Shown here one piece after another: positions 8,395-64,000 of a stretch of DNA of 64,000 bases (the first letter of the stretch is position 1; each line of letters begins with the position of its first letter). Origin of the DNA: Macrostomum lignano (taxonomy: Eukaryota). The position numbers and the translations under genes are program-made. Under the pieces are notes generated by a model that saw only the letters and a program-made list of their open reading frames with translations, was not told where the DNA came from and ran no database searches. The stretch covers positions 62,001 through 126,000 of the forward strand of contig NIVC01000261.1 of NCBI GenBank assembly GCA_002269645.1, given 5' to 3'.

Positions 8395-8441
<47 letters not shown>

Positions 8442-8458: not shown

Positions 8459-8507
<49 letters not shown>

Positions 8508-8638
8508 GTGTCTGTCTGTCTGTCTGTCTGTCTGCCTCTTTGTCTGCCTGTCTGTCTGTCTGTCTGTGTGTCTGTCTGTCTGTCTGTCTGCCTGTCTGTC
8601 TGCCTGTCTGTCTGTCTGCCTGCCTGTCTGTCTGTCTT

Positions 8639-8685
<47 letters not shown>

Positions 8686-10594: not shown

Positions 10595-10633
<39 letters not shown>

Positions 10634-29765: not shown

Positions 29766-30646
29766 TCATGGGTTTGTCTTTTCTACTTTTTCTCCGAGTA
29801 GGTTCTGGCCCTGTGTTGTTTGCGGGTTTTGCCGTACGAACAGCAGAGTAGCAAACTGCTCGTTTCGTTTCAGTGGAGAATTTACGTCATTTGCGTTAAA
29901 TTGGTGCCGATATCCTCGACGCAGCATTTCGCCAACAAATTCTTTGTCGGCACCGAGACACTCGTAGCCGTTGTCTACCGCTGCAGCCTGCGGATTGCCG
30001 TACCTTGTGACCCATTTTAAGGGATTGTTATTTGGTAGAGTTGGGTCAACGCACAGCCCAATGAGCAGCAGCTCGCCAGGGTTTTGAACATTTGCCGCGG
30101 CTGCCATTATGTCCCTTATAAAATGCTCCTGGTCTTGCTGATTCTGCGGATATCCATATCCCATCGCCCAGGGACACTGGAACCACAGGACGATGTGATC
30201 TGGATTCACATCGTGATCCAGCCAATTTAAGAACGCTTCTCTGTCTTCCAGATGGGGGGGCCGAGGGCCTCAAACGTGGGAGGTCCGTCAGGGAGCCGCC
30301 TTATTATCTCGAGACGCAGTCGCCTGGGCCAGACGTCTCTGATTTCTTGATCTTCTTGAACCGTAATGTCAGTAGAAAATATCCCCGACGGCGAGCCGCG
30401 CAGTGCTGCAAACGCGCTGCTAAACGTAAAATTTCCCTCTCCGTCTCCAAGGAACACGTAGCATGTGCTGGGCTGCGGCGGTGGAACTAAACGCAGTCTG
30501 ATGCGACGGTACTCGACTTCATTGATAGTTATGATTTGATCTCGCAATTCATCCCATCCAAGCTCTCCGACGGGCTCGTCTTGAATATTCACGGCAGCCA
30601 GCTGTTCTGCAACGGCTTCCACGTCAGGCTCTCCGCGGTCTGCCAT
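29766..30646 (-). CDS. DUF2431/BMT5-like Rossmann methyltransferase-like protein (~290 aa), split by a 1-nt frameshift at the G7 run 30254-30260
   Basis: VFLGDGEGNFTFSSAFA resembles the DUF2431 LLVGEGNFSFS motif; later IVLWFQCPW and GYRH resemble its FNFPH and GY.H motifs. ORFs 30227-30646 and 29766-30209 join in frame if one base is added. Acceptor at 30655-30656 upstream of the ATG. Confidence 0.55.
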
Positions 30647-44800: not shown

Positions 44801-47800
44801 TGAGTGAGTTCATGAGTTTATGAGTGAGTTCATGAGTTCATGAGTGAGTTCATGAGTTTATGAGTGAGTTCATGAGTTCATGAGTGAGTTCATGAGTTTA
44901 TGAGTGAGTTCATGAGTTTATGAGTGAGTTCATGAGTTCATGAGTGAGTTCATGAGTTCATGAGTGAGTTCATGAGTTTATGAGTGAGTTCATGAGTTCA
45001 TGAGTGAGTTCATGAGTTCATGAGTGAGTTCATGAGTTCATGAGTGAGTGAACGAGTGAATGAGTGAACGAGGGAATGAGTGAGCGAGTGAATGAGTGAG
45101 CGAGTGTGTGAGTGAGTTATTGAGTGAGCGATTGAATGAATGAGCGAGTGAATGAGTGAGCGAATGAATGAGTGAGCGAATGAATGAGTGAGCGAGTGTG
45201 TGGGTTAGTGAGTGAGTGAGTGAGTTCATGAGTGAACGAGTGAATGAGCGAGTGGGTGAATGAGTGAGTGAGTGAGTTTATGAGTTTATGACTTCATGAG
45301 TGAGTGAACGAGTGAGCGAGTGAATGAGTGAGTGTGTGAGTGAGTGAACGAGTGAATGAGTGAGTGTGTGTGTGAGTTAGTGAGCGAGTGAGTGAGTTAT
45401 TGAATGAACAAGTGAAAGAGATTTCCGACTCAAGAATATGTGAATCCAATACAAGCGTACATGTATATCTGTGAACCCTGGATGACCTTGGAGTTTACTT
45501 TGTGTGTAGTGCAGACATTTTTTATCAAACTGACCGCAACTTTAGATAATGGCATAAGCAATTGCAGTCTCTGTGGAACATTCAGCAGTATTTAGATTAA
45601 AACCATGCACACAAAATTGAAATTCATTAAAAAGTGTAGAAATTTTAATCTTGTTTTAGCTGTAATAATGCATGAGCTTTCGTGTCAGTTTTGCACAAAC
45701 TATTGGGGTGGCCTTCAGAATTTCGAAATTTTGTGCAACCGACAGCTCAGCCGCAGCTATTGAAGGCTGCGTACGGCTGTTCAGTCCAAGGACTGGGGGG
45801 TCGCCACACACACCCCCAATTGCCCCAGCTAATGCTGGCACCCATTTTACAGCTGGGTGAACTGAAGCAATGCAGAGTGAGGTGTCTTGCTCAAGGACAA
45901 AAATTGTTTCTAGTGGGTCAAGAATCGAACCCCAGACATTTCCTTCAGTCGTGAGTTCGACGCTCTAACTACCCCCTTCCCCCACAAACCCACGCCCATT
46001 TTCACCTCATTGAAATCTCCCACTCGCGGTATGTGATTCTTCCTAGTCTTGCCAATCACTTTGCCAGTATTGGAAATCACCACGGCCGTATTCCAGACGG
46101 TGTCGCCGTGTGATTCGTCGCGTTCAAGAATTGGCGACACGATCACCATGTTGTACCGGCCGGCCAGCTGTCGCATCGCCTGGGTGGTTGGGCCATCCTC
46201 GGCCGATTCGGCGAACTGCGTCCACGGGTGCTTCTCCCGGGTGCAGAAGGCGAACGGCATGTCTGTCGGGGTGGGGGGCAAAGGGGACGGGTGAGATTGA
46301 CCAAGACGTTGTTTGACAGTCTACTCGATAGTCTACTCGATAGTCTACTCGATAGTCTACTCGATAGTCTACTCGATAGTCTACTCGATAGTCTACTCGA
46401 TAGTCTACTCGATAGTCTACTCGATAGTCTACTCGATAGTCTACTCGATAGTCTACTCGATAGTCTACTCGATAGTCTACTCGATAGTCTACTCGATAGT
46501 CTACTAGATAGTCTACTTGATAGTCTACTCGATTGTCTACTTGAAAGTCTACTCGATAGTCTACTCGATAGTCTACTCGATAGTCTACTAGATAGTCTGC
46601 TCGATAGTCTACTCGATAGTCTACTTGATAGTCTACTCGATAGTCTACTCGATAGTCTACTAGATAGTCTGCTCGATAGTCTACTCGATAGTCTACTCGA
46701 TAGTCTACTCGATAGTCTACTTGATAGTCTACTCGATAGTCTACTCGATAGTCTACTTGATAGTCTACTCGATAGTCTACTCGATAGTCTACTCGATAGT
46801 CTACTCGATAGTCTACTCGATAGTCTACTAGATAGTCTGCTCGATAGTCTACTTGATAGTCTACTCGATAGTCTACTCGATAGTCTACTCGATAGTCTAC
46901 TCGATAGTCTACTCGATAGTCTACTAGATAGTCTACTCGATAGTCTACTCGATAGTCTACTTGATAGTCTACTCGATAGTCTACTCGATAGTCTACTAGA
47001 TAGTCTGCTCGATAGTCTACTTGATAGTCTACTCGATAGTCTACTCGATAGTCTACTCGATAGTCTACTCGATAGTCTACTCGATAGTCTACTCGATATT
47101 CTACTCGGTAGTCTACTCGATAGTCTACTCGATAGTCTACTCGATAGTCTACTCGATAGTCTACTCGATAGTCTACTCGATAGTCTGCTCGGTAGTCTAC
47201 TAGATAGTCTACTCGATAGTCTACTCGATAGTCTACTCGATAGTCTACTAGATAGTCTGCTCGATAGTCTACTTGATAGTCTACTCGATAGTCTACTCGA
47301 TAGTCTACTCGATAGTCTACTCGATAGTCTACTCGATAGTCTACTCGATAGTCTACTCGATAGTCTACTCGATAGTCTACTCGATAGTCTACTCGATAGT
47401 CTACTCGATAGTCTACTCGATAGTCTACTCGATAGTCTACTCGATAGTCTACTCGATAGTCTACTCGATAGTCTACTCGATAGTCTGCTCGATAGTCTAC
47501 TCGATAGTCTACTCGGTAGTCTACTAGATAGTCTACTCGATAGTCTACTCGATAGTCTACTCGGTAGTCTTGCCTGCTTATTACTCTACTTGATGGTCTA
47601 CTAGATAGTCTACTCGATAGTCTGCTCGGTAGTCTTGCCTGCTTATTACTCTACTTGATGGTCTACTAGATAGTCTACTCGATAGTCTACTCGATAGTCT
47701 GCTCGGTAGTCTTGCCTGCTTATTACTCTACTTGATGGTCTACTAGATAGTCTACTCAATAGTCTACTTGACAGCCTACTCGATAGTCTACTCGATACTG

Positions 47801-48991: not shown

Positions 48992-50067
48992 TAAATCTTG
49001 TAGCGCTAAAGAACAAGCTGAACTTCAAATGAATAAAAAATGAATAAGTTCAGCTAGCTATCAGGCAAAACCTTTATTTTGTGATAATTTTCTTTGAAAA
49101 TTAAGAAGTCAAAATAGTGCTGAAATGCTTTAAATTAGTCATTAAAACAAATTTCATGTTACATCTCATTTTATTTAAGCAAATCAACTTGAAAATTATA
49201 TCATTAGGCCTTTAAAACTGCTTTAAAAACAACAGAATTAAAAGTCTTCGGGACTATCTACTGGATTAATGACTACAATCAAATTAAATTGCATCTGTTG
49301 GGTACGCTCGTACGCAGGAATTTTTGTCAGAACTATATTTAATAGGAATGAGAGGACAAAAATATGAAAATAATAATATACTTTGCCATTAAGAGTAAAA
49401 TCAATAAAACATTGTGTTATAGACTAACGGAATAATCTTGCTTCAGGGCGCCAAAATAAGCGCCTGAATTCCTGCTGCAGTGCAGCGCCAAAATGAAGAG
49501 CTGCCAACATTGATTCTCAAAACAATGTACATGTATAGTAGAGATTTATTCATGTATATGCATGTAAAATAATTTTACGAGAATTCAATTCTTGGATGGC
49601 TTTACACAATATATACAGTAAATATGTACATGTAAAAAACCATGGCGACGACGCCCCTGTACATGTGATTGTGAATATCAAGCATGTTTTTTGTAGCAGG
49701 GGCAGGGCAACTTCTTTGTTCCTTTTTTCCTAACAAAAACGAACATATGAGTGTATTGAAATCAAGGAACTATATACAGAATATAGATTTATTGCAACTC
49801 TGCGAATGCATAGAAATTAAAAAAATGGATTAAGAAATCTGCTGATTGATGCCGAACTTATTGTGTAAAATTAACATTTACATGCAAGCTGTTTTTTGTT
49901 ACAGGAAATCGAGAGTAGCTAGGTAGGGGCGGAAAGGAGAGTAGGTAAGGGGCGGAAAGGAAAAATGAGAATTGGTAGGGGCGGAAAGGAGAGTAGGGGC
50001 GGGTGGGAGAGGGGCGGGTGGGATCGAGAGTAGGGGCGGAAGGGCGAGATATGGTACCCTTGGTGCT

Positions 50068-50483
50068 GGCGCCCCTCAGATGAAATGGCGCCCCTCAGAT
50101 GAAATAGCACCCCACAGATGAAATGGCACCCCCTCAGATGAAATAGCACCCCACAGATGAAATGGCACCCCCTCAGATGAAATGGCACCCCACAGATGAA
50201 ATGGCACCCCACAGATGAAATGGCACCCTCACAGATGAAATGGCGCCCCTCAGATGAAATGGCACCCCCACAGATGAAATGGCACCCCCACAGATGAAAT
50301 GACGCCCCTCAGATGAAATAGCACCCCACAGATGAAATGGCACCCCCACAGATGAAATGGCACCCCCTCAGATGAAATGGCACCCTCACAGATGAAATGG
50401 CGCCCCTCAGATGAAATGGCGCCCCTCAGATGAAATGGCGCCCCTCAGATGAAATGGCACCCCCACAGATGAAATGACGCCCC
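50068..50483. repeat. 18-19-bp minisatellite (CCCC[T/A]CAGATGAAATGGCA), left part; interrupted by the viral element
   Basis: The same unit resumes in the same orientation at 60658. Confidence 0.95.
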
Positions 50484-50912
50484 ACTACGTAACACGTAGA
50501 TTGTGGTTGATTTTGGAGGTGAGGTGGGTGTCAGAGCCAATGCAAATTCAACGCCTATCTAAATACATTAGACCGATTCTAATTGGTCCAGAGTCATTAT
50601 GTGAGACATTTATGCTCTCATGTAAAATCTATACATGTAATCAGTGTATCGTACAGCAGCGACGAGTACAATATAGTACGCATAATTAGCGCATCGCAGT
50701 TGTTGTACGCAGAAGCGCGCGCGCGCCCCCATCCCCACACAATGCAGCATTGGTGTACGCAGAATTAACTGTCCATATTAACTGTCCATATACCCAAAAT
50801 TGGCAGAATTAGAGCGCCCACCCCATAACTGTCCATATTATTACTTGTCCATATTTACTGTCCATCCCAAAATTGGTGTACGCGCAGAATTTTAGCGTCC
50901 GCCCACCCCATA
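50484..50912 (+). repeat. Left terminal inverted repeat (429 bp)
   Basis: Reverse complement of 60228-60657 apart from two small indels seen by eye (a GC dinucleotide and 3 bp). Confidence 0.95.
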
Positions 50913-51218
50913 ACTGTCCATATTATTACTTGTCCATATTTACTGTCCATATATACACCCAAAATTGGTGTACGCACAGAATTGTCTGTGACCCCACAAA
51001 ATTGGCGGCCCCACGCGGAGGCATGATGAGTCAGTCAGCCGCTGTAAACCGCTGCTGCAGCCTGTTATTTCCACTCCTTCCATACTTCACTCTCTAGAAT
51101 TCAGCCCTCGTCGACACTCCGAGACAATTACGTCATCCCCCAACCCCTCTCCCAAATAAGTTTTCAAAAGGCGTATATATATTTACACAAAAAGCCGGCC
51201 GAGCTTTGATACGTATAT

Positions 51219-51869
51219 TTATTTAGCATACACAATTGGGTGACGACCCAAAACGTTTGAATAATAGCGAGCAGGAGCATTTTGCAAACAGTTTACAATC
51301 AAGTATGAGTAGGGGTCGCGAGTAGCATCCTCATACGTTTTGACAAAACTTTTTGGATTAGTGGGGACCAGCTGCCTTGCAATATGAGACACTGTGCTGG
51401 CATCCCGTACATTGCGGAATAAAACAAGGTAGTTCGAATTGAGTGACTGAGTTCGGTGCTCCTTACCCTTTGCAAACAGGTTTTGCACAAGATACCAAAG
51501 TCGGAACCCCACGTGGGAGACTTTGCGCGTGAAAAAAGTTGTAAAAGCGCCACTCTTTTCCATGGCATGCATTTGGTCGTCGACGACAAGCAGAATATTT
51601 GGTTCAGGGACATATTGTTCAGGATCAAATGTACACGAACGAAAATTTACAGGGTAAGGCAATTCAAACAGTTCAGGATCCGGATAGTGGCCAAACCAGT
51701 CTACGCGAATCGGCTTCGGATCTTGAAAAAATTCTTGTCTCAATAGGTTTTTCACAAGTGTGGTCTTGCCGCTTTGAGCCACCCCAGCAAAAATTGCCGA
51801 CGTTTTGGGGGCAAATTTTAAAGAGTCGGGGTCTATTGTTTGATACATTTTGATAGGCCGCCCAATCAT
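51219..51869 (-). CDS. A32/FtsK-like genome-packaging ATPase
   Basis: Walker A GVAQSGKTT, Walker B LLVVDD, VQNLF, RTQSLNSNYLVLFRNVRD; typical of Polinton ATPases. Confidence 0.92.
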   Translation of the reverse strand: MIGRPIKMYQTIDPDSLKFAPKTSAIFAGVAQSGKTTLVKNLLRQEFFQDPKPIRVDWFGHYPDPELFELPYPVNFRSCTFDPEQYVPEPNILLVVDDQMHAMEKSGAFTTFFTRKVSHVGFRLWYLVQNLFAKGKEHRTQSLNSNYLVLFRNVRDASTVSHIARQLVPTNPKSFVKTYEDATRDPYSYLIVNCLQNAPARYYSNVLGRHPIVYAK

Positions 51870-51871
51870 AT

Positions 51872-52321
51872 TTATGGATGATGCTGCTTTATTTGTAGAC
51901 AGTGATTCTGCACCATCAAGTCGTTCTCGTAAAGATTTGTGCTATAACAGTCGCGCAATATTTTTTCAATTGACAGACCCTCCAGAAAGTGTTTTTCAGC
52001 CACAAATATTACATGAGCCCCGCAGGTCACACTTAGCTGATGCTGTACAGGATGCCGGTTCATGGCCACCTTCACAGGGACATACTTTGCGATCCACAAC
52101 TTTAATAAATCTGGCACAGGATCGATACACACGGGGTCAAAAAATGTCACGCTCTCATCGGCATGAAGACAAATTAAAGCCCAGTGAGTGCCTGGTAGAT
52201 TGCCAGTGTCAAAGTTAATCACGTATGCAGCAGGATAAACAGGCTGCGGAATCCTGTCAACTGGTGTTACTCGAACAGGGACAGGTAGTATTAGACGTTC
52301 TAATATATCTAGACTATTCAT
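51872..52321 (-). CDS. Adenain-like capsid maturation cysteine protease
   Basis: VINFD..PGTHW (His), FFD (Asp), Q...S.TCG (Gln/Cys). Confidence 0.9.
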   Translation of the reverse strand: MNSLDILERLILPVPVRVTPVDRIPQPVYPAAYVINFDTGNLPGTHWALICLHADESVTFFDPVCIDPVPDLLKLWIAKYVPVKVAMNRHPVQHQLSVTCGAHVIFVAEKHFLEGLSIEKILRDCYSTNLYENDLMVQNHCLQIKQHHP

Positions 52322-52371
52322 ATCGGCATGAATATGGTCGTTATTCGAGAATAAAAAAGAGATGTTTGTTT

Positions 52372-53655
52372 CTACACGTAGTCTAGAATAACCTGACGAC
52401 CGCGAGTGATTTGCACAGTATTGTCAAAGTAGCCAAACACCAACACGTTGATTCCTGCGGCCAAGGCAGCAGAAAACTTTATTTGTAGCGTCAGATTCCC
52501 TCGCTCGCGAGGCATGCTATGCCCGCCCAGCTCCATGTCGGGCATGAGATTCCAGGCGAAGAAGCAGTAGCCAGCTCCATAGTCGGAATATGATACGTCA
52601 ATATCCAGGTCCCGATTCATCTTTCCTAGGCTTTTTAGTAGCATGGCATACTCGCGAGCATAGTTATGAACACCGAATCGAGGAGTAAACGGTTGTCCAC
52701 ACAGACTGACTCCGTCCTTATACAGAGCGACACTGTCGGCACCAAATGGCTCAAAATTAAACGGGTTATGTGTAGCCACACCGTTGTATGCGCCGCTGTT
52801 CACCATGCCAACAACCACTAGTTTAGGCTTTTGTTCAGGAAATATATTATTGATTGACATGTCCCGAACACCGCCAGCCACTGAAGTATTGTGCACAACA
52901 AGTCGCTCAATCGGATAGATTGCATTCTGTTTGCCTAGTTGTTCTTCAATCTCCAATGCCAATTGGGGGTTTGCCTTGACGCGGCGCACATGTAGTTTGG
53001 CACTCTCGAGTACTAGCCGCGCATCAACCCCGTCCGCGTGGTTTTCCAGAACGAAGCCGGAATTGTGCATGGTCAGCGTAATTACCATATCAGTGTATGG
53101 CAGTAGCATTCGGTCGTTGGTAACAAAAAAGTCTAAACTAAGAGGTCCATAAAGGTGAAAGGTGCGTGAGTTTGCCGCCATCGCCTTGCGGGCTACAAAG
53201 CCAGGATTTCCAACCACAGCCATTTGACCTCCAGCGTCCTTTGCGTAGCCCATCATTCTCAGTTGATTAGTTTTTGAATCGTGTCCGTAATTCAAACACG
53301 TGAGAATATAGGCCTTGTAAGCGTGGTTGTTATTGCTCGACTCTACGTGTGTCCCGTTGATTGTCAACGTGACGTTTTTAAACATGCTTTCAAGGACGTA
53401 ATTGACCGGCGCAACATTCGAATCAGCAGCAAGATTTGTACCATTAGACTGCTTAACGCGGGCCTTAATCTCGAGGTCAATGTCGTTAAGATCGATAAAC
53501 GTCTCACCACCAACAATCCTAAATTCGACCACGCTGGCATTTTCAACACTGGCAACAGGGTGAACTTCTTCAGTGGTGGCGCTAATTGCAGCAATTTGGT
53601 GTGCGCGAGGAGCAAAAAGCTCGAATTCCGACTTTGTACACAGGCACTCAGTCAT
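52372..53655 (-). CDS. Major capsid protein (double jelly-roll, Polinton PY/hexon-like), 427 aa
   Basis: N-terminal C.KSEFELF..P..VEF.I.G...IDL; VAPVNY.L.SMF; P..VVVGMV..AYNG...NPFNF; GYCFFAWNL.PD; GN..L.IKF pattern of Polinton MCPs. Confidence 0.9.
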   Translation of the reverse strand: MTECLCTKSEFELFAPRAHQIAAISATTEEVHPVASVENASVVEFRIVGGETFIDLNDIDLEIKARVKQSNGTNLAADSNVAPVNYVLESMFKNVTLTINGTHVESSNNNHAYKAYILTCLNYGHDSKTNQLRMMGYAKDAGGQMAVVGNPGFVARKAMAANSRTFHLYGPLSLDFFVTNDRMLLPYTDMVITLTMHNSGFVLENHADGVDARLVLESAKLHVRRVKANPQLALEIEEQLGKQNAIYPIERLVVHNTSVAGGVRDMSINNIFPEQKPKLVVVGMVNSGAYNGVATHNPFNFEPFGADSVALYKDGVSLCGQPFTPRFGVHNYAREYAMLLKSLGKMNRDLDIDVSYSDYGAGYCFFAWNLMPDMELGGHSMPRERGNLTLQIKFSAALAAGINVLVFGYFDNTVQITRGRQVILDYV

Positions 53656-53698
53656 TTTTCATTCAACAGCGGCTTAGTGTGGTGCTCTAATAGACAGA

Positions 53699-54067
53699 TC
53701 AGTTATTGGCACGGGTTTTTTTATTTATAGAGTCGAAAATATCAGAATGCTGCAGTCTTTTTCTCGTTTTTTTGTTAGTCATCTTTCTTCGTCTTTGTCT
53801 GCCGCTACCTCGTTGTGCGACTGTGTCCTTGAAAGCATCTTTAGCTGCCTGGACAGAGTTACGCAATGCCGCTTCTTTCAAGTTCCCGCCTTGATCGAGT
53901 GTGTCGCTAACTGTTGTAGCTAGGGCTCGTGTTCCGTGGCGAAGAATATTTTTGCCAAAACTCTTTAAAATTGGCAGGGCAAATCGGGCAATGCTGCCAA
54001 ACAGGCCGTTGCCGCGCTGTGCACCGGAAAATACCGGTAAAGCTCCTCCGATCAAGATTGAAGGCAT
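53699..54067 (-). CDS. Small basic core/membrane-active precursor protein (adenovirus pVII/pX-like; cupiennin-like amphipathic helix)
   Basis: LIGG, QRGNG and QRGSG protease-type sites; amphipathic GLFGSIARFALPILKSFGKNIL; Arg/Lys-rich tail; located between penton and MCP. Confidence 0.65.
   Translation of the reverse strand: MPSILIGGALPVFSGAQRGNGLFGSIARFALPILKSFGKNILRHGTRALATTVSDTLDQGGNLKEAALRNSVQAAKDAFKDTVAQRGSGRQRRRKMTNKKTRKRLQHSDIFDSINKKTRANN
53721..53729 (-). promoter_or_regulatory. TATAAATAA box upstream of the MCP gene (one example of a motif also at 54116, 55321, 56508, 57276, 57559, 59906)
   Basis: About 66 nt upstream of the MCP ATG; embedded in S-I-N codons of the upstream ORF. 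Confidence 0.65.
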
Positions 54068-54111
54068 ATTGTCGATCAGTTGCTACCTTTTATTCGTGAA
54101 AACTTCTTTAT

Positions 54112-55265
54112 TTATAGCTTAATTTCACGAATGTTGATCGATAAAACAGTTTTGCCTCGAAGAATCCGATCCATTAACTTGCCCATATCGTCACAGATTT
54201 GCACCTCAATGGTTTTGAATGGGTGTTTCACCAACGGTAAGTAGGATGGATTGACAAACTCGTAGTACTCTCGTTCGCCGTATACCTTTTCATTCAAAGG
54301 AATTGCCCCAAGCAGGGGACTTTGACGTCTCCAACAATGGCAGAGTCGACAATATTTGAATAGATGTACATAGTTTGTACACCATTTGTTAAATCGATTG
54401 GTCGTTTAGCGGTCTTTGGAGTTTCATTGAAAACATCTTCGCGAAAGCCGAGAATGGCAGCAAGCTCTCCAATGTCGAATAAAATGTTTTCAATGGGTTT
54501 GTACTCACACCGGTTCAGAAAAGGGTTGTAGCGGAATGCATCCACTCTCGTCGCTGGACTTATTGGGAGCTTTGAAACGACGCCCCAAAGCGCTCCATTA
54601 ACATAATTTAAGAGCTCATCAGGCGTGCGGTAGAATCCTTTAGCAATCCGCAGTGACGTTCTAGAAGGCCAGACACTCTTTTCAAACGTTAGAGTCATCG
54701 GACTCTCTATGGAGGAGGAGGACTCCAATTCTATAGCGAATACTAACGAATTTCTTGGGTTTAATAAAAAAGTCGTTACTTCGATATTTGATTTATTTCC
54801 AGCGTCATCAACCTTTTTAAACATGCTACGCACATTACTGGACAGCCTAATGTTCGCACCATACCATGATTTGTTCACAATTGAAATTTGGCCTTCCTGT
54901 GAACGCTCAATGCAAATCATCGCATTATCGTCTTGCTCATATTTTAGATCGGCGATGATTGCATCAACCACTTCGTTGGCTGTTGATAGCCCCGCGGCGA
55001 GAGAAACCGACGCAAACTGTTTATACGTGGAGGCGGGTTTTTCTCTCACCTCAATGTCAATCACTTCATCCTCGGGAGCGTTGGTCAGGACATCAACCAT
55101 TCGATTATCGGGGACGGTTTTGAATTCTTTACAAAAGTAGATCCGTTCGATGCAGACTTCATGATTCGGAAAGTGGAGGGTGTCGGGCAAATTAATGCTA
55201 TAATGTGCCGAATTATTCTCAGGATAGTGCTCAACGCACGCATTGCTAGGTAGGAATAGATGCAT
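54112..55265 (-). CDS. Minor capsid (penton) protein, ~384 aa, with a 1-nt frameshift at GGGG 54315-54318
   Basis: N-term LFLPSN..YPEN..Y.I.LP..L...EV....I; C-term MYIYSNIV..IVGD.KVP[LL] continues in the -1 frame as EF.NP.YLPL.K..F.TIEV.I.DD.G, the conserved Polinton penton end. Confidence 0.85.
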
Positions 55266-55316
55266 TGTAATATACTACACGTTTCGAGTGTATGTGTGTT
55301 CATCCTTGTCTTATAT

Positions 55317-56372
55317 TTATAACTTCCTCAACGGTACAAATGCATTGAACGACTCGGGATAGCCGCGCCAACTAACGAAATGATGAGCGACACCATTGAT
55401 GATGACATTGCGACGCAGAATTTTGTCTATAACAAAGCGGTCTGGTCGAACCGTCTTTGAAAGTTCATTATAGTAGAATCGACCCTCGATTTGTTCTCCA
55501 GATAGGTCGGAAATGCGATAAAAATGAGGCGGTCCCGGGCATACTTGAGACACAACGTAAACTTCTTCGCTGTACATATCGTATGCTTCCTTGTCAAAGG
55601 CTCGACGAGATTTTGAAATTCTGACAAAGTCCCCTTTTTGGTAAACTGGTTCATCATATTCAGGATCCTTGTAGAGCTTTTCCCACAATTCTTTTTGATT
55701 GTGCAGACCGACACTCGAAGGTTTCATATCAATAGTAGAGTGTACTGTGTTGTTGTAACTTTTAACCAATATTGGCAAATAGTCGATCCAACGCCACGTG
55801 TTTTTATGCTCAAAGTAGCGAGCTAAACGTTTTCGGAGAGTCCTAATCAGCCTTTCAGCCATATTTGCCTTGTATACAGAGTTTGTACTGTACATTTTGA
55901 TATTATGGGCTTTCAGTAAGTTCTGCATGCGATTGTTATAAAACTCGGTACCTCGATCAACGTGTAGATATAAAGGCTTAATGGGGAAGTCTTTGATCAT
56001 GCTTTCAAAAGCCTTTGGAGTGTCGCTTTTCAATTTTATTGACTGACAAAAAGCCAATTTACTAAGCACGTCAATTGCAACTAGAATATATCGATGACCA
56101 TCATTCCATTGTTCGTATCGCGACATGTCCATCAAATCCGCTTGCACAGTTTCCATGAAGCCTCCCGACATTACTTTTCCGGTTCGGAATTTTCTTTTAA
56201 CCCTCTTGTGCCGGGTGTAGCTCGATTGGGTCTTCAGCCATTCGTCTGTTTGGCGTCTCGTCAGGGAGGGGACCAGCCGTTTGGCCTCCTGATATACACG
56301 GGCAGCATTTGTAAAAGCGGCGTCCCCCTGTTCGTACACTCTCCGAAGAGCGGTTTTCACCCTCATTCGCAA
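55317..56372 (-). CDS. Retroviral-like (rve, c-int) integrase with C-terminal chromodomain
   Basis: D (QADLMD), D (HVDRGTEF), E (AERLIRTL); YNNTVHSTI.MKP; chromo-like IDKIL..VSWRGYPESFN. Confidence 0.95.
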   Translation of the reverse strand: MRMRVKTALRRVYEQGDAAFTNAARVYQEAKRLVPSLTRRQTDEWLKTQSSYTRHKRVKRKFRTGKVMSGGFMETVQADLMDMSRYEQWNDGHRYILVAIDVLSKLAFCQSIKLKSDTPKAFESMIKDFPIKPLYLHVDRGTEFYNNRMQNLLKAHNIKMYSTNSVYKANMAERLIRTLRKRLARYFEHKNTWRWIDYLPILVKSYNNTVHSTIDMKPSSVGLHNQKELWEKLYKDPEYDEPVYQKGDFVRISKSRRAFDKEAYDMYSEEVYVVSQVCPGPPHFYRISDLSGEQIEGRFYYNELSKTVRPDRFVIDKILRRNVIINGVAHHFVSWRGYPESFNAFVPLRKL

Positions 56373-56503
56373 CTAGATTCGATGCACAGCATGAGTAATT
56401 ACACTTGAACTCCACAGACGGTTTGTCTGAGCAAAGCTTTGAAGTTACAGCTGCGGCACCCATGATCCAAAAACAGATTATAAATCATGAAAATGATTTC
56501 TAT

Positions 56504-57178
56504 TTATAGTTTTTTTAACGTCTCGTATTTTACTGCTGGTTTCTGCCGCCTCTTTGGTTCGCGAAGTTGGTATGAAGCATGCCTGTAGGCATTGCTGCCA
56601 CGATCTTCATATTTTTTAATTTCATTCAGGCCACTGGCTTGGTCTTTGTGGAAGTCGTTGTAGAAATCATTAGTTCCAATTGCTTGCTCGACTAAAAAAT
56701 CGTCTCGATCCGGATCCGTGCCGACTTCTTTTTTCACACTGACTTCTTCTTGTTGGCGTCGTCCTAGTAGAGCTTTTGCAATATCTGCCTCTTCGGCCAG
56801 GGCCCAAAAAGCGGTACTATATTTTGGGCTTGGGCGGTCGCGCCTTTCATTCGATGTAATCTCCTTCAATAGATCGAAAATATTGCTTCCTGGCCAGGTT
56901 TTTCCATCAAATACAATTTCCCACGACTTGTTGTACTCCAAATTTGGGTATCTTTCTGTCAGCATGTCCCAAACACGTTGTTGTCGTTCAGGAAAACGAT
57001 TACTCTTCTTTTGCTTGATCTGACTTAGTTTATTTTGGAGTTGAGTGTTGTATTCAATGAGTTTTTCATATTCTGTTTTGGATGCAATTTCTCGGGGTGC
57101 GCCTTGACTTAGTCTATTAAATTCTTCTTCTGGTACAACAACGTATTTATTCATTTTAGCGACCAAGTAGTCCGCCAA
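56504..57178 (-). CDS. Uncharacterised Polinton-type protein (W..GSNIFDL motif), 224 aa
   Basis: Open 224-aa frame with its own TATA box; the EIVFDG..WPGSNIFDLL motif resembles conserved hypothetical Polinton ORFs as I recall them. Confidence 0.6.
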   Translation of the reverse strand: MADYLVAKMNKYVVVPEEEFNRLSQGAPREIASKTEYEKLIEYNTQLQNKLSQIKQKKSNRFPERQQRVWDMLTERYPNLEYNKSWEIVFDGKTWPGSNIFDLLKEITSNERRDRPSPKYSTAFWALAEEADIAKALLGRRQQEEVSVKKEVGTDPDRDDFLVEQAIGTNDFYNDFHKDQASGLNEIKKYEDRGSNAYRHASYQLREPKRRQKPAVKYETLKKL

Positions 57179-57476
57179 ACAGGCTTGATATTAGCGGTGC
57201 AGCAACAGATGCAAGGATGGGTAGAAAGCCACCGACTTGAGGATTCGAGAGAAGCATATTCTTCTTCCTATTTATAGACAATTTTGTGTCTGCCAATTCA
57301 CGCAACGATCTTCTGTATCGCTTTAATCGCAGATACTGTTTCGGAGAAAGATCGATATTTCCCCGGAGCACGTTGTGACTCAATTCACAGAGACAATGAA
57401 TCAGTTCCTTGCCTGCACCTCGAATAATGGCCCGCCGAAGAGCGGGAGCTCTGCGAGCTCGCCGCGACAAGAACAT
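57156..57476 (-). CDS. Small basic virion precursor (106 aa) ending in a QVGG-cleavable hydrophobic amphipathic peptide
   Basis: CLCEL..NVLRGNI.L...Y.RLKRYRRSLRELA basic helix, then QVGG|FLPILASVAAPLISSLFGGLLGR. The ATG at 57476 fits the TATA at 57559 better than the ATG at 57533. Confidence 0.7.
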   Translation of the reverse strand: MFLSRRARRAPALRRAIIRGAGKELIHCLCELSHNVLRGNIDLSPKQYLRLKRYRRSLRELADTKLSINRKKNMLLSNPQVGGFLPILASVAAPLISSLFGGLLGR

Positions 57477-57639
57477 AGTCTGGAGATTCCGTTTGTCATT
57501 TTGTTTAGCAAAAAGATGTTGGTTGCAGTGCACTGCAATTTATGCACAATATATTTATAGACAATTTCATAGCAGCTTGTACGTACATACAAATTCGGTA
57601 CAGTGGTAAAGCAGTAAAGTTACGCAACAGCTACATGGA

Positions 57640-58118
57640 TTAGACATGCAAAACGCTAGTCACATGATCGTACATTTGACAGAGCTCTTTAAAGTTTCGT
57701 ATTCCAAGGAAAACAAGGCGGCCATTCTTTCCGCATAATAAACATTTAGCATTGCGAAATGGAGACTTTATTACTATTCCATTGAAAACTTCACACTCCC
57801 ACTTCACCCAGCGGGACCGGAGTATGCAATTTGGAAAAAGTTTGGCCATCTGTCTACTTCAGCGCGGTAAGTACTAGTGGTAACAACAACAGAAATTGGT
57901 TTACATTGAGGAAAAAGACGCAAAACTTGGTTGACTGAGCGACAACCGAATACAATTGCAGACAAAGAACGCTGAAAAAAGTTGATTGTACATTTTCCTA
58001 TTCGCAAATTGATAAGAGCTCTTGGTCTGCGAAATGTCCGTGCGCTCGCCCAGTCCAAGTCAGGCATGCGGCTCCATTTCGCGCAAAACACTCGGTTCAC
58101 ACACTCGACGTTCTGCAA
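57640..58118 (-). CDS. Divergent TATA-box-binding-protein (TBP)-like protein, split by a 1-nt frameshift near 57835-57850; no in-frame ATG at its 5' end
   Basis: LQNV..VN..C and INFF..S.IVFGCRS..Q align to TBP repeat 1. WECEVFNGIVIK..KCLLCGKNGRLVFLGIRNFKELCQMYDHVTSVL aligns to repeat 2 ([44 protein letters not shown]). Confidence 0.65.
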
Positions 58119-58303
58119 GTAGATTTTTCGGCAGTTTTTACTTTCGTATCCTTCTTGGGGCTTTCGACCGCTTCTTTGATTCGTTGGCTGCTACTAGTTT
58201 CGATTGATGCTGTCGCTTTCTGGCCTGATTTTAGGCACCTTTGGCTGCTTCTCCTTGACAAGCTTTGGTGGTTTCTTTGCTTTCTTGCTTACTTTCTTGA
58301 CGC

Positions 58304-58846
58304 CTACCTTGATTTTTGGAGGTGGCGTCCAAAGCAACGATCGAATGCCTGTTTGGCTTCTTCGACAAACTGTAGCTGTTGAATTTTTGGCATTGCGGTC
58401 AAAACAGCGTCTCGAATCACGGCCGTGTCGAGAGTAAACAGAATCCTGTAGTAGCCGCTCTTGTTTTTGTAATCCTCTACAGGCAGTCCGTTTTGGTCGT
58501 ACATTTTAAAGTCGTGAGCCAGCCCAAACGCTGCACTGTCACCTCCAAACGCTGGGTTGTAGCCCAGCAGAGCTAGACTTTCGCTGGAAAGGTGCTCCGC
58601 CACAGTGTTGAAAGTGTAGGGTATGCAGCTTTCAATGTGTTTTTGTGCAATGATGATGAATTCGCGACCTTCGTTGTCAGTACGCACGCCCTTGACGATC
58701 AAAACAGGGACCGCATTGGCCAAGTAGAGAGGTCCCTGTTCGTCATATTCAATGTCAAACGTTTCAACCCCGTTGAAGCTCGGACCTCGCGGTTTGAGTG
58801 CCAGCAGCTCTCGCTTGACGCAGTTGAAGTCTTGCACTGTCTCCAT
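58304..58846 (-). CDS. Putative OB-fold single-stranded DNA-binding protein (T7 gp2.5/DUF2815-like), 180 aa; probable Lys-rich tail in the -1 frame to 58194
   Basis: YDQNGLPVEDYKNKSGYYRILF..KIQQLQFVE resembles the D.N..PI.D...SG.Y.R...N.Q pattern of gp2.5-like SSBs; own TATA at 58915. Confidence 0.4.
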   Translation of the reverse strand: METVQDFNCVKRELLALKPRGPSFNGVETFDIEYDEQGPLYLANAVPVLIVKGVRTDNEGREFIIIAQKHIESCIPYTFNTVAEHLSSESLALLGYNPAFGGDSAAFGLAHDFKMYDQNGLPVEDYKNKSGYYRILFTLDTAVIRDAVLTAMPKIQQLQFVEEAKQAFDRCFGRHLQKSR

Positions 58847-58941
58847 GTCTCTTGTCTGTTTAGAAAAATTTGCAGGTACGGGCGCTTGCAGATGCTCCGG
58901 GCTGGTGCTTATATACCCGAGAGTCTCAATAAGTTTTTGTT

Positions 58942-59478
58942 TTAATTACACGATAACGAGCTTTTTACAGAGTTGTCGTTATCGAGGATTCCGGAAAAAA
59001 TGAACCTTTTGTTCCTATTTTCGGGTGCTGGCGTTGGAGGTGTGCTGAAATCCTTGCTCCAAGTTGCTGGTAGTTCAAGCTTTGGCGGCCTGTTCCTCTT
59101 GTGCTTTGGCAGCCAAAAATTCCAAATCTTTTGTTGCTCCTCCCACGACGGATTATACAGATCTTGATGGTTCCGAAAACGTATTTTTTGGCGATGCTCT
59201 TCACTTAGTATCGGAGCCAGTAATCTCTCCATTCGTGCTAAATCAGCTTTGAATCTCATTTTGTCCCGTAGTTGCTCATTTATCCTGGCTGCTGCGTAGT
59301 CTTGGCTGTCGTAGGGGCCTTGATCAATTTCCTCGACCTTGGCATTGAAGGTGACTAATCGCTCAGAAATCGGTTTGCTGTGGCAAATGCACAACCAGTC
59401 AGCAGATTTTTTCAAGGCCTCATATTCGTCTTTTTCCTCGTTCGATAATAGGGGGTAGTCTCTGGAAATCCAGCTCAT
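58942..59478 (-). CDS. Hypothetical viral protein, 178 aa
   Basis: ATG-initiated ORF with upstream TATATAAG (59607); no recognisable domain. Confidence 0.6.
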   Translation of the reverse strand: MSWISRDYPLLSNEEKDEYEALKKSADWLCICHSKPISERLVTFNAKVEEIDQGPYDSQDYAAARINEQLRDKMRFKADLARMERLLAPILSEEHRQKIRFRNHQDLYNPSWEEQQKIWNFWLPKHKRNRPPKLELPATWSKDFSTPPTPAPENRNKRFIFSGILDNDNSVKSSLSCN

Positions 59479-59670
59479 TTCTCGTCAAGCACTTGCTGCG
59501 TTGTTCGCACTAGTGGTGGGGATGTTATTCGAGCTTGAAAAACTGTCGAGAATCCGAGAAAAATTTGCAGGTACGGGTGCTTGGTGCCCCTGGTTGGTGC
59601 TTATATACCCGAGAGTCTCAATAAGTTTTTGTTTTAATTATATGTTAACGAGCTTTTTACGGTGTTGTCG

Positions 59671-59838
59671 TTATCGAGGATTCCAGAAAAAAGAGACTTT
59701 TGTACCTATTTTCGGTGTTGGCGTTGGAGGTGTGTTGAAATCTTTGCTCAAAGTTGTTGGCAGTTCATGCTTTGTCGGTCTGATCCTCTTGTGCTTTGGG
59801 AACCAAAAATTGCTTGTCAAACACTGCGTTTTCCACAT
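59671..59838 (-). CDS. 55-aa ORF paralogous to the C-terminus of the 178-aa protein
   Basis: MWKTQCLTSNFWFPKHKRIRPTKHELPTTLSKDFNTPPTPTPK.. versus NFWLPKHKRNRPPKLELPATWSKDFSTPPTPAPE; TATAAATAAG at 59906-59897. Confidence 0.5.
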   Translation of the reverse strand: MWKTQCLTSNFWFPKHKRIRPTKHELPTTLSKDFNTPPTPTPKIGTKVSFFWNPR

Positions 59839-60227
59839 GATTGGGTTGTTAATTGAACTTGGTGAATTTAGATAAGCGGCCGAGAATCCAAATTTTCTTA
59901 TTTATAGTTTGCTGTCTGAACAAAGTTGGTTTGGCATCTTGTTAAACGAGAATATTTCATGCATAGAAGTTTGTGTTTTCAGACCTTGATGACGTGTCTG
60001 GCTATAAAGTTAGCATTGTGGCTCGACCGGGTTGTTGCGTAACACTGCTGCAGGTAGCTATAGCGGCCAGCGCAGGGCAGAGGGGTGGACAGCGGCGATT
60101 TACTGGCTGACTGACTCATCATGCCTCCGCGCGGGGCCACCAATTAATTGTGGGGGTCAAAGAATATTTTCTTGGATGGGTGGGCGCTACAATTCTGTGC
60201 GTACACGAAGTTTGGTATATAAACAGC

Positions 60228-60657
60228 TATGGGGTGGGCGGACGCTAAAATTCTGCGCGTACACCAATTTTGGGATGGACAGTAAATATGGACAAGTAAT
60301 AATATGGACAGTTATGGGGTGGTAGGCGCTCTAATTCTGCCAATTTTGGGTATATGGACAGTTAATATGGACAGTTAATTCTGCGTACACCAATGCTGCA
60401 TTGTGTGGGGATGGGGGCGCGCGCGCTTCTGCGTACAACAACTGCGATGCGCTAATTATGCGTACTATATTGTACTCGTCGCTGCTGTACGATACACTGA
60501 TTACATGTATAGATTTTACATGAGAGCATAAATGTCTCACATAATGACTCTGGACCAATTAGAATCGGTCTAATGTATTTAGATAGGCGTTGAATTTGCA
60601 TTGGCTCTGACACCCACCTCACCTCCAAAATCAACCACAATCTACGTGTTACGTAGT
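60228..60657 (-). repeat. Right terminal inverted repeat (430 bp)
   Basis: Reverse complement of 50484-50912. Confidence 0.95.
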
Positions 60658-60866
60658 CGCCCCTCAGATGAAATAGCACCCCACAGATGAAATGGCACCC
60701 CCACAGATGAAATGGCACCCCCACAGATGAAATGGCACCCCCACAGATGAAATGGCACCCCCACAGATGAAATGGCATCCCCACAGATGAAATGGCACCC
60801 CCACAGATGAAATGGCACCCCCACAGATGAAATGGCACCCCCACAGATGAAATGGCGCCCTCTCAT
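60658..60866. repeat. 18-19-bp minisatellite, right part of the interrupted array
   Basis: Same unit and orientation as 50068-50483; begins with the TSD copy. Confidence 0.95.
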
Positions 60867-61539
60867 ATGAAACTATACAATACAACTACAAACTACACAA
60901 TTTTATCTCTCTTTCAATTTTTAGGTGAATAAACACCAAATTTCACATATACGAGTAGCAAAGCCTTCTTCTTAAGCCTGTCTGTGTGGCTTCGTTGGAC
61001 CATGCGTAAAAAACATGCAGTTATAGACTTGTTTTTGGGTTTTTTAATTGTTTTAATACTTCCACGGTTATGCAGTAAGTGATGTTTAGCGGGGTTGATG
61101 ATACTAATCGGATAGAGGGGTCTGTGGCCGGACTAGTGTTGAAAAGCGCTTGGAGTTCGGGACCGCACAAGCCTATAGTCTCCCATTTAACCGTCGGTGG
61201 GGGACACAACTTGATGCCATTATCCGAGTGCCTCTGGCGGAAGCTGGAGGGGCCATGAGGGGCTTACGTACCACAACTGGTGATGCTGATGATGAGGGGT
61301 AGAGAAGAGAACCTGTAGAAGCTATTCTCTATTCAAGGTGCTGTCATTAAAACTAAACGGTCGGTAAGTGGTGGATAGGCGGGGCGAGCTTGGGGCTTCA
61401 GCCCTGGTTTCGGGGCTGCCGGGTTTTTCGATCTTCCTGGCGGTTTGCCAAGAATTCTACATCCGAACTCAGTGTTGTTAGCACTACTAAGGGCCGGTAG
61501 ATCCGCCCTTTTTGGAGGTGGGGTGGGTGTCAACCCTCC

Positions 61540-61930
61540 TCGCCTCTCATTGGCTGGCGCGCGCGCCGCAGGCGCGTGGCGCCAAGCGCCATCCAGGCGC
61601 CAATCAGGCGCCCATGCCGCAGGCGCACCCTCCCGACATGTACCGACATGCCCACCCTCCCGATATGTACCCCGATATGTATGCCCTCCCTCCCGATATG
61701 TATGCCCTCCCTCCAGAGCAGCAGGCGCCCATGCCGCAGGCGCCCCAAACCGCAGGCACCCCGAGTGTACACTCTCCCGAGCCAAAGGTACACTCTCCCG
61801 AGCCAAATGTACACTCTCCCGAGCCAAAGGTACACTCTCCCGATATGTACACTCTCCCACTCTCCCGATATGGGTGTACACTCGCCCAATACAGGTGTAC
61901 ACTCTCCCGATATGTAGTCAACGATACGTA
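61540..61930. repeat. GC-rich short-repeat cluster (GGCGCC.., CCCGATATGTA, GTACACTCTCCCGA units)
   Basis: Several short tandem motifs. Confidence 0.7.
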
Positions 61931-62057
61931 CCCCGCAGGCACCCTATACCTCACGCCCTGCCCCCACCTAGCCTCTTCCCCTCTCTCAGCCACATCTCAA
62001 CTAGCGAAATCGAACCCAGGTCGCGCCCATACTAGGCCACTACACGGTTTGGGGGTA

Positions 62058-62250
62058 TAGGGAGCGAGAAGTTTTAACCCTGATGCTGACGCAGCCCTGT
62101 ACAGTGAGCGTGTACGGGCAGAGAGGGGTGGGGCGGACAGAGAACCAGCCACTAGGTTGTTATACTGTTGAAGCATAGGGAGCGAGAAGTTTTAACCCGA
62201 TGCTGACGCAGCCCTGTACAGTGAGCGTGTACGGGCAGAGGGTGGGTGGA
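62058..62250. repeat. Direct repeat of ~70 bp (TAGGGAGCGAGAAGTTTTAACCC..GTACGGGCAGAG) at ~62058 and ~62177
   Basis: Two near-identical copies read directly. Confidence 0.75.
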
Positions 62251-64000
62251 AAGAGATGTGAATAACACAGCCTGCTGCAGGAGCCGGATAGAGAGGCGCA
62301 TGCTAGGACAGAGAGACAGTGTGAGTCACACACACCCCCACAGAGAGAGCCGTACAGAGGATAGAGAGCTCCCTCCCCAGTTGCAGGGGACAGAGAGGCA
62401 GGCAGGGTATGCAGGGGCATGCGAACAGTCAAGGGGCCACGCGAGGATAGAGTGGAGGAGCAGAGATGTGTATGGACAGAGAGCAGGCCACGCGTGCGTA
62501 GTGTGAGGGAACAGAAACATATGGAGCAGGAGGGAGATAGGAAGCAAACGCGCAGGGTAAGGGAGCCACACAGGGCGGTACAGTGAGACACGGGCAGGGG
62601 TGGAGCCGTGCGTGGACAGAGCTGAACGGCATGGTCAGCTGCAGGAATAGGATGATAGAGAGGCGCGGATAGGAGGGACAGAGAGCAGTGTGCAGGGGTA
62701 GGCAGCCACGCGGGCAGGGGAACAGAGGCGCGTGTAGCCAGTTGCAGCCCGGGACAGAGAAGTGTGAAGGGGGCCTGGGACAGAGTTCCGAGCAAGGCAC
62801 AGAGAGGTAGGGTCCGGTAGCCATGTATAGACAGGGACCCACGCGAGGGCAGGACAGGGGAGTAGACATGCAAGTTGCATGCAAGGCCAGAGAGGTGTGC
62901 GCGGAGGGAGACAGAGAGCAGTGTGTAGGGGTAGGTAACAGCAAACTTTAGTAGAGGTGCGTGCGGGGACGGAGAAACCAGTCTGAGCGTACAGAGACGT
63001 TACAGAGAGGTACACAAACAGAGAACAAAGCGAGCAGAGCACATGTGTAGGCGCAGAGACGTGAGGGAGAATCGACCAAAACACGCTATGTATTATCAAA
63101 AGTTGGTTTTAGTGCAGCATATTTAATAGCGGGTAGTATAATAGTATGTACATAGTAGGTATAATGGTAGTAATAATAGTAAGTATATTAGCCCAAAAGG
63201 TAGGCTAAAACAGGCTAAACTGTGTGTACGCATCCTCATCACCCCACAAGCCCCTCTCCCGCCAGACTCACTCTTCCAAACCCTCCTGTATTGCTGTATG
63301 AAGGAAAATATAGTGTAAAAATACAGATCTTAACCGTCAGACCGCTGAAATCAGGGCACACTAGAGGGGGTTTCGGGGTCTGCATGCTCTATGTAAGCTG
63401 CTTGAGGAGGTTCCAAGGGCGTTGTGAGGGTTTCCATTATGTTTTGAAAAAAAACTAGGGGCTTAAATACAACGTTTTATTCAAAAAGTAGGTTATTTTA
63501 ATGAAATAGCTGACACAATCATTGTCGAGAGTAGAAATTTTTATAAGAAACCAGGCATTTTAGCAAAAATAAACCTTCAAACCACATAAAATTGAATAAA
63601 AAGCAGACATTTTTAATTATAAACCGCAAGTATTTTAATAGAAAAGTAAGCAAACAAGGCACAAAACCAGCAAATTTTACCTTTTTCATTTTAATGTTAC
63701 TGATAAGGTAGAGAGTAGAAACTTGTGAGCTGTACGGAGTTAGAAAGTATTAACCAATATGTATCGTATGAATTATTAGTTCAGTACCAGCCATTGGTCA
63801 AGCGAGCATTTATGAAGTTATTACGAGTGATGAGGGATAGAGAGCTATATACAGGAAGACAGTATCCTTCTAAACCACCACGAACAGATTGCTAATAGAG
63901 ATAAGCTTTGTCGGTAGGCAGTATGAGTAAGCGAAGGCGGGGTAAATACTTTTCCACATGCCAGACAGAACAGTATTGTGCTAGGATTTCTCTCGAAATC

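Follow-up and report, generated by a model that had tools for sequence, protein, structure and literature searches.

A conserved TATA-type box precedes the virion genes of a polymerase-less Polinton relative in Macrostomum lignano and may be read by a TBP-like protein of the element

To our knowledge it is an open question how integrated animal Polintons activate their capsid genes and if a helper virus is required for this. The question bears on a 64,000-nucleotide stretch of the flatworm Macrostomum lignano (assembly GCA_002269645.1, contig NIVC01000261.1, positions 62,001 to 126,000; hereafter the window), which carries a complete Polinton/adintovirus-type element with all of its genes on the minus strand (Table 1). 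A preliminary description of this DNA had noticed a short motif, TATAAATA, before most of the element's genes and had proposed it as the site of a TBP-like protein that the element itself encodes. The analysis showed that TATAAATA is a conserved, strand-specific and position-constrained cis-element before the virion-module genes, as seen from its enrichment, its retention in a sister family and its spacing to gene starts. The box is very probably a core promoter. We give about an even chance to the proposal that it is a box for late promoters which the element's own TBP-like protein reads, acting together with host RNA polymerase II (Pol II). What is new here is that co-resident Polinton lineages have different late-type boxes, each with a divergent TBP-like protein.

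All seven TATAAATA sites of the preliminary description, named here by their first base (59906, 57559, 57276, 56508, 55321, 54116 and 53729), were recovered on the minus strand. The whole window holds ten matches, seven of them within the element. The enrichment was borne out by comparison with the plus strand and with shuffled sequence. The element core (51100-60050) has seven sites on the minus strand and none on the plus strand, against a mean of 0.14 and a maximum of 2 in dinucleotide shuffles (0 of 2000 reached seven) and an order-3 Markov expectation of 0.38. TATAAATA is the commonest 8-mer of the core, and six of the seven sites read CTATAAATA. The pattern TATAWAWR, which all seven sites fit, occurs there 10 times in sense and once in antisense.

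The two TATATAAG sites at 59607 and 58915, which had been grouped with TATAAATA, are also present, but the grouping did not hold. Both lie inside one tandem duplication (D7, 58893-59009 and 59585-59701, 89% identity) and were therefore counted as a single site. Lumping the two motifs was rejected, as TATATAAG is a duplicated, early-type box that stands before left-end genes.

The gene order of the element is left-end genes, TBP-like frame, 118-aa and 216-aa genes, integrase, and penton-, pVII-, major-capsid-, protease- and ATPase-like genes. In the window copy the reading frames are broken at about 54314, 55332, 57445, 57816 and 58150-58335. Short-read contigs disagree with the window copy at these points, which probably reflect errors of assembly. 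The breaks interrupt the penton, TBP-like and 118-aa genes, and the gene structure was therefore taken from unbroken natural copies such as L001. The likely gene starts in L001 lie at +45 to +74 from the box for five sites and at +122 for one (+60, +122, +45, +56, +49 and +74). The earlier distance of about 40-130 nt to the next ATG does not hold literally, as an ATG already follows at +18 to +20 of the boxes at 57276, 56508 and 55321. These three ATGs are out of frame, which fits starts placed downstream of the box rather than inside it. The 56508 box lies at +45 to a conserved 88-aa open reading frame (ORF) and at +142 to the integrase, and its real target is probably the former. This 88-92-aa ORF has a C-N-Y-S-C-C motif, and its MGAAA start is presumably myristoylation-like.

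The conservation of the box was examined within the host genome assembly, which contains at least 16 full-length matches to the major capsid protein (MCP) at 98-100%. Besides near-identical copies (family A), the same genome contains a sister family B with an 88% identical capsid and distant families that match at 30-33%. Between A and B, identity is 37-55% at synonymous codons and 26-61% in intergenic stretches, and 765 of 8253 8-mers (9.3%) survive. All seven TATAAATA sites are present at matching places in family B with changed flanks, and the 58915 TATATAAG is kept too. At 57559 and 58915 the global alignment shifts the box within the same intergenic stretch. The probability of seven survivals at this rate is about 6e-8, a rough figure as some of the sites are coding. 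In family A, of which 10 copies were compared, the four central boxes were exact in 10 of 10 and the 57559 box in 9 of 10. The 59906 box was exact in all eight copies that reach it and the 58915 TATATAAG in 7 of 9. The 53729 box was exact in 7 of 10 by alignment and in the remaining three by direct match. Conservation of the motif in related elements, one of the points on which the preliminary description had made its proposal depend, was found for family B.

The boxes overlap other signals, partly as described before. The TAA of the box is the stop codon of the upstream gene at 56508 and 54116. The third reported stop, at 55321, is a frame-break artefact of the window copy: the box reads as V-I-N-I codons inside the integrase frame in all seven other copies checked. 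The S-I-N codons at 57276 and 53729 are present. At 53729 family B keeps the 8-mer and reads T-I-N, so the nucleotides are conserved and the residue is changed. AATAAA is present in the 54116 and 53729 boxes, at 54112 and 53725.

The protease, ATPase and TBP-like genes had been described as lacking an exact box. This is correct for the exact 8-mer, but a one-mismatch TACAAATA at 51897 precedes the ATPase and is kept in family B, and a similar site at 52487 precedes the protease. The TBP-like gene probably has no box of its own because it would be the downstream exon of the TATATAAG-driven gene at 58846.

More distant lineages in the same genome have other boxes. The virion block of family C, which is pPolB-bearing except for the derivative C4, has no TATAAATA; TATAAG[C/T] occurs there 5-9 times in sense orientation, at positions like those of the A boxes. 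The sense/antisense counts in the virion blocks were 6/0 in A and 6/0 in B for TATAAATA, 5/0, 7/0, 9/0 and 7/1 in C1-C4 for TATAAG[CT], and 7/0 and 7/0 in D114 and D393 for [CT]TTAAGAA. The sense counts of a box of another lineage were 0-1. Long-ORF starts lie at +35 to +75 of 43 of 72 boxes in ten elements, against 8.4 expected from TAA-matched positions. Ten further elements comprised seven of D type, one of C type (5/0 boxes) and two without a TBP match or a clear box. Six of the seven D-type copies have 4-6 boxes, and the rearranged C273 has a TBP-like gene and one box. The last two (C414 and C1391), which had no TBP match in 20 kb, look truncated or disrupted. C4 (L035-L036, G000:C593) is a multi-copy lineage nearly identical to C5 (L033-L034, G000:C84); it has no polymerase domain and keeps a terminal-protein-like ORF.

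TBP-like proteins are encoded by all five C lineages, by lineage D and by the metagenome contig L068, and they are about 20% identical between the four lineages. CATAAAC occurs 9 times in L068 (0 of 40 nulls). L071, a relative of L068, has [C/T]ATAAAC 9 times in sense and once in antisense, and its top word in the unbiased scan is a TG repeat. The unbiased 7-mer scan found the box significant in A, B, C4, D114, D393 (1 of 40 nulls) and L068. The metagenome scan gave 50 loci, with TBP-like matches in two (L068 and L097). The unbiased motif test on 10 of these loci was significant for L068, gave a non-AT motif (ACTTCTG) for L089 and showed nothing in seven. All the metagenome loci are fragments and are therefore not valid TBP-less controls. 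One of them, a fragment without a TBP-like match, has [G/T]TAAACA or ATAAACA before several genes (L091:2540-6687), non-significant in the unbiased scan. Three scans of a viral contig collection returned no relatives.

The left-end genes of A, B, C1-C3 and D stand behind TATATAAG or TATAAAAG (TATAWAAG), whatever the late box of the lineage. This is what would be expected if the host reads the early boxes and a lineage-specific factor reads the late ones. With a single host TBP there would be no reason why three lineages in one host should have three late boxes while their early boxes are alike, and this is the main argument for a late box read by the element. The different boxes and different TBP-like proteins of the other lineages in this host thus support reading by the element's own protein indirectly.

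The existence of the TBP-like gene was upheld. Its predicted fold (predicted local distance difference test score, pLDDT, 85.6) matches TBP, with a Foldseek E of 1.5e-8 and a template modelling score of 0.73. Of the 44 matches at E<=0.001, all those listed are TBP-containing entries. The alignment behind this prediction included more canonical TBP-like rows. In the sequence comparison with solved structures, the best match of the frame was an archaeal TBP (E 0.0023), and TBP entries made up 20 of the 22 matches listed. The Pfam TBP family (PF00352) was above its cut-off in C1 (31.8 bits), C4 (31.0) and D (83.3) and had no match in C3. The conserved DNA-contact residues of TBP are four phenylalanines and two asparagines. 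Only the E-x-F phenylalanine of repeat 2 is invariant in the element proteins; the others vary by lineage, and the full set was not found. A role of the TBP-like gene as a replacement for pPolB was rejected, as pPolB-bearing C and D elements carry TBP-like genes too.

At its first strand the TBP-like frame lacks an ATG; it starts in phase after TTGCAG. The five C lineages have the same layout, a TBP-like frame without a start ATG in phase 0 directly after AG. Phase-0 GT donors occur in the upstream ORF of A, B, C1, C3, C4 and C5; none was found in the last 150 nt of the upstream ORF in C2. As far as these splice signals indicate, the TBP-like domain is likely made as a cis-spliced fusion with the gene at 58846 behind TATATAAG. 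The alternative is trans-splicing to a host leader that ends in ATG. About this host it is reported that 30% of genes are trans-spliced, that the leader ends in ATG and that the acceptor is [T/C]TNCAG (PMC8629364). The acceptors of A/B, C1, C2 and C3 fit this motif. Protein searches within 108-345 aa or 99-315 aa found no spliced fusion form, which is a weak negative. The 180-aa upstream domain gave a low-scoring fold (pLDDT 38.7) and no match in an Atlas search. Its profile comparison with the upstream protein of the C lineages gave a probability of 2%, and homology of the A and C upstream proteins is thus not shown.

In the mechanism that we propose, host TBP would read the canonical TATATAAG and drive the early gene at 58846, whose spliced form would carry the TBP-like domain. 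The TBP-like protein would bind the box of its lineage, located some 25-30 nt ahead of every late start, and bring in host Pol II, a step modelled on the TBP mimics of beta- and gamma-herpesviruses at TATT boxes. Gene packing would require a TAA-cored box to sit in or at the end of the preceding gene, which may explain the overlaps with stops, I-N codons and AATAAA. More broadly, animal Polintons and adintoviruses may have a minimal late-transcription system of their own, in which a lineage-specific TBP-fold protein has diverged together with a lineage-specific TATA variant. The same reading includes insulated, orthogonal TBP-promoter pairs in one nucleus and two flatworm lineages that make the TBP-fold protein only by splicing onto an early gene. 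We put this broader reading forward, as a whole, tentatively and with more doubt than confidence.

Several points weigh against reading by the element's own protein. The family B protein scores 22.4 bits with PF00352 against a cut-off of 22.9, and several DNA-contact positions are altered in the A/B protein, so that it possibly does not bind TATA-like DNA. As both the box and the TBP-like protein track lineage, the four lineages, confounded by ancestry, do not prove co-evolution. The choice of the patterns, the blocks and the +35 to +75 window was made once the data had been seen. The unbiased scan was not significant for C2 (7 of 40 nulls) or C3 (10 of 40), although the box was the top word, and it missed C1. 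The TBP-like gene of lineage D follows a late-type box, a misfit with a simple early-to-late switch. The protease has no box that family B keeps, the 52487 variant belonging to family A only, and the interval from the 53729 box to the start of the MCP gene contains an upstream ORF of 4 codons.

Contigs from 8 of the 24 listed runs were compared with the element; they are assembled sequences, only guessed to be RNA, and cannot place transcription starts. They hold neither a splice joint at the putative intron nor a leader-like loose end at 58112. Contigs span several boxes (for example X10, 53543-54186; X11, 57021-57743) and extend about 220 nt beyond 59906 on its upstream side, as read-through, overlap or DNA would explain equally well. 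A poly(A)-tailed contig (X14) has its end at 57499, which is 60 nt downstream of the 57559 box. This is a hint that transcription from the TBP side terminates ahead of the late block, but only one contig shows it, and internal priming at the short genomic A-run is possible.

The strongest competitor takes the boxes for ordinary TATA elements of Pol II promoters that host TBP reads, with the TBP-like protein serving replication, decoy or repression. TATAAATA fits the canonical TATAWAWR and could therefore be read by host TBP, and the same 8-mer precedes a left-end gene in C4/C5. Solved TBP complexes with single-base TATA variants, as described in their entries, indicate that host TBP tolerates variants, and the altered contact positions of the A/B protein point the same way. 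This explanation leaves it unexplained why three lineages in one genome each have their own box with almost no cross-use, while the early genes use a shared canonical box. Two of the three lineage boxes in this host are non-canonical, and [CT]TTAAGAA and CATAAAC are poor canonical TATA boxes. We consider reading by host TBP unlikely, though it deserves to be taken seriously.

The boxes might also be late-promoter motifs read by a co-infecting large DNA virus, with a different helper for each lineage, as proposed for mavirus-like elements. The late promoters of poxviruses (TAAAT) and baculoviruses (TAAG) are TAA-cored, often overlap the upstream stop and are initiators read by viral RNA polymerases. 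All four boxes share such a TAA core; in contrast, the element encodes no RNA polymerase and its box spacing fits an upstream element. Families A and B have no pPolB and need some help in trans. Endogenous mavirus-like elements (EMALEs) are comparable, as these integrated Polinton-related viruses carry short motifs, specific to each type, ahead of their genes (PMC8547959; bioRxiv 10.64898/2026.07.28.741278), and a TCTA motif among them matches the late promoter of the giant virus CroV (PMC8547959). Those motifs are attributed in these sources to giant-virus machinery in protists, whereas here the host is an animal and each lineage has its own TBP-like gene. Every clear-box lineage seen over its full length encodes such a protein, and the splice signals and the integrase suggest nuclear expression by host Pol II. 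A helper virus as the reader of the boxes is improbable; none was found here, and no search aimed at one was made.

That the motif serves chiefly to mark transcript 3' ends (termination or polyadenylation), or arises from stop codons and A-rich coding, is very improbable. In its favour, AATAAA lies in two sites, which family B retains, and contig X14 ends downstream of a third. Against it, AATAAA is not enriched in the core (11 against 6.5; 123 of 2000 shuffles reach 11), only 10 of 72 boxes across lineages use the TAA of their core as a stop (so that the earlier account of the box as a stop codon was overstated), several boxes lie about 30-165 nt inside upstream coding sequence, the C, D and L068 boxes have no AATAAA, and the spacing is fixed to the downstream start.

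Among known systems, the closest in logic is the late promoter of beta- and gamma-herpesviruses, in which a TATT box is read by the viral TBP mimics BcRF1, ORF24 and UL87 (PMC4893493). The proposed system is alike in having an early canonical TATA, a virus-specific variant on structural genes, a virus-encoded TBP fold and host Pol II. It differs in that the virus group is unrelated, the TBP-like domain is about 157 aa and the box of this element is already a canonical TATA. No counterparts of the five further proteins of the herpesvirus viral preinitiation complex (vPIC), as given in that source, were identified among the remaining ORFs, which had no Pfam match over the cut-off; no dedicated search was made. 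The element was therefore not classed as a herpesvirus-type system. The element protein resembles cellular TBP (PF00352) in its predicted two-repeat saddle fold, and the box of the element fits the cellular consensus. It differs from cellular TBP in its identity of about 20% and in the non-canonical boxes of sister lineages.

In the Polinton literature covered here, a TBP gene is mentioned but not the pairing. The legend of Fig. 5 in Starrett et al. 2021 lists a "TBP" gene in midsize eukaryotic linear dsDNA (MELD) viruses with adintovirus-like PolB (PMC8502044). The main text of that paper has 0 occurrences of "promoter" and describes no box or TBP-box pairing, and the available text of PMC11071296 has no occurrence of promoter, TATA or TBP. 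No paper on a Polinton TBP-box pairing was found in the open-access literature, supplements being outside the scope.

A self-encoded TBP-like factor with a matching box would give a concrete and directly testable trigger for capsid genes, and would, if true, resemble the herpesvirus TATT system while belonging to viruses of another, unrelated group. The three natural box/TBP-like pairs in one laboratory flatworm permit a comparison of cross-specificity, which would reveal how the TBP fold may be adapted to new sequences; with the metagenomic one, the boxes to compare are TATAAATA, TATAAGC, CTTAAGAA and CATAAAC. If host TBP reads the box, the sites would be an ordinary but well-conserved TATA set.

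The element itself has the long terminal inverted repeats (TIRs), the 6-bp target-site duplication (TSD) and the retroviral-type integrase of Polintons/Mavericks (adintoviruses). Its ATPase and its protease-, capsid- and penton-like genes probably correspond to theirs (PMC8502044). Unlike them, families A and B have no pPolB: the window element gave no match to pPolB or terminal protein, nor did any of three A/B copies with TIRs, and pPolB was found in the related C and D elements. The element is therefore a polymerase-less Polinton relative and not an autonomous Polinton. The ATPase, protease and capsid genes show 27-42% similarity to their counterparts in pPolB-bearing elements, and Pfam gave no match for the capsids and the protease. 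The penton, pVII, major capsid and protease labels are ones that we assign from sequence motifs, and the C-terminal tail of the integrase is presumably chromo-like.

Table 1. Positions of the element, its boxes and its genes (window coordinates unless a locus is given)
Feature	Position	Strand	Remarks
Polinton/adintovirus-type element, TIR-bounded, complete	50484..60657	-	10,174 bp; no pPolB; insertion in 19-20-bp minisatellite
6-bp TSD CGCCCC	50478..50483	+	second copy 60658-60663
TIR, downstream end	50484..51040	.	about 560 bp
TIR, upstream end	60105..60657	.	
TATAAATA	59899..59906	-	before 54-aa duplicated fragment; in family B holds Fic-gene stop, +39 to 117-aa gene
TATATAAG, duplicate of 58915 box	59600..59607	-	before 178-aa ORF (59478-58942)
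TATATAAG, early-type canonical TATA	58908..58915	-	before gene at 58846; kept in family B
Gene of unassigned kind	58304..58846	-	180 aa to putative donor; open 226-250 aa in unbroken copies
Putative phase-0 intron	58113..58307	-	GT donor 58307, AG acceptor ends 58113; 196-199 nt in 10 family A copies, 67 nt in 9 family B copies
TBP-like frame	57640..58112	-	157 aa, two-repeat saddle, no ATG at start; one break in window, open in other copies
TBP-like frame without start ATG, corresponding sites elsewhere	L014:3231-3298; L041:6728, L042:8189, L043:2324, L035:1915, L044:8788		families B, C
TATAAATA, intergenic	57552..57559	-	+60 to 118-aa gene
Contig end with 16-nt poly(A)-like tail (run X14)	57499	-	at start codon of next gene
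Presumed basic core-protein-like gene	57156..57499	-	118 aa in L001; broken in window
TATAAATA, in coding sequence (S-I-N)	57269..57276	-	+122 to 216-aa gene
216-aa gene	56504..57154	-	
TATAAATA, holds stop of 216-aa gene	56501..56508	-	
Conserved 88-aa ORF, starts MGAAA	56197..56463	-	92 aa in family B; overlaps integrase start
Retroviral-type integrase, C-terminal chromo-like tail (presumed)	55317..56366	-	Pfam rve E 2.4e-8, above cut-off
TATAAATA	55314..55321	-	+56 to penton-like gene
Minor capsid (penton)-like gene	54112..55265	-	384 aa in L001; broken near 54314 in window
TATAAATA, holds penton stop and AATAAA	54109..54116	-	+49 to next gene
pVII-like basic core protein gene	53699..54067	-	122 aa
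TATAAATA, in coding sequence (S-I-N; T-I-N in family B), with AATAAA	53722..53729	-	+74 to MCP gene
Major capsid protein-like gene	52372..53655	-	427 aa; 30-33% to counterpart in pPolB-bearing elements
Adenain-like cysteine protease gene	51872..52321	-	TACAAATA at 52487 upstream, family A only
TACAAATA, one-mismatch box	51890..51897	-	about 50 nt before conserved ATPase ATG (51848)
Packaging ATPase gene	51219..51869	-	P-loop matches, alignment

Families A and B are multi-copy and TIR-bounded, with a full virion module, integrase and TBP-like gene and without a pPolB or terminal-protein match. A TIR-bounded example of family B (L132+L014+L131) is 10,541 bp long and has TIRs of 667 bp, and 6-bp TSDs were found at both family B copies checked. 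The left end of family B holds a Fic-domain gene (L014:923-1702, Pfam E 6.7e-14) and a 117-aa gene; at this place family A has tandem duplications, in two or three copies, of the end of the 178-aa gene. The minisatellite around the window element (19-20-bp unit) covers 50067-50483 and 60658-60860, and a contig of run X1 has the joined, element-free form. In contigs of three runs the outer TIR ends are joined and about 10 kb is skipped (joints 50531-60608 and 50533-60610), possibly a small non-autonomous derivative or the ends of a related element.

Capsid-module queries had no match in three other pPolB-bearing elements, C41 (L054-L055), C1945 (L056-L057) and C558 (L058-L059). C41 carries inverted repeats at a spacing of about 10 kb and has a gene that follows TATATAAG, and the repeats at 61500-61900 of the window (region 61500-63000) resemble its terminal region. 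Two ORFs of a different insertion lie at 29766-30646 on the minus strand, downstream of another TATAAATA at 30927. The window also contains two host genes split by long tandem repeats, at 4990-24540 (plus strand), which we take to be a HECT-type ubiquitin ligase with ankyrin repeats, and at 44414-46260 (minus strand), presumably of the nitrilase family (beta-ureidopropionase-like).

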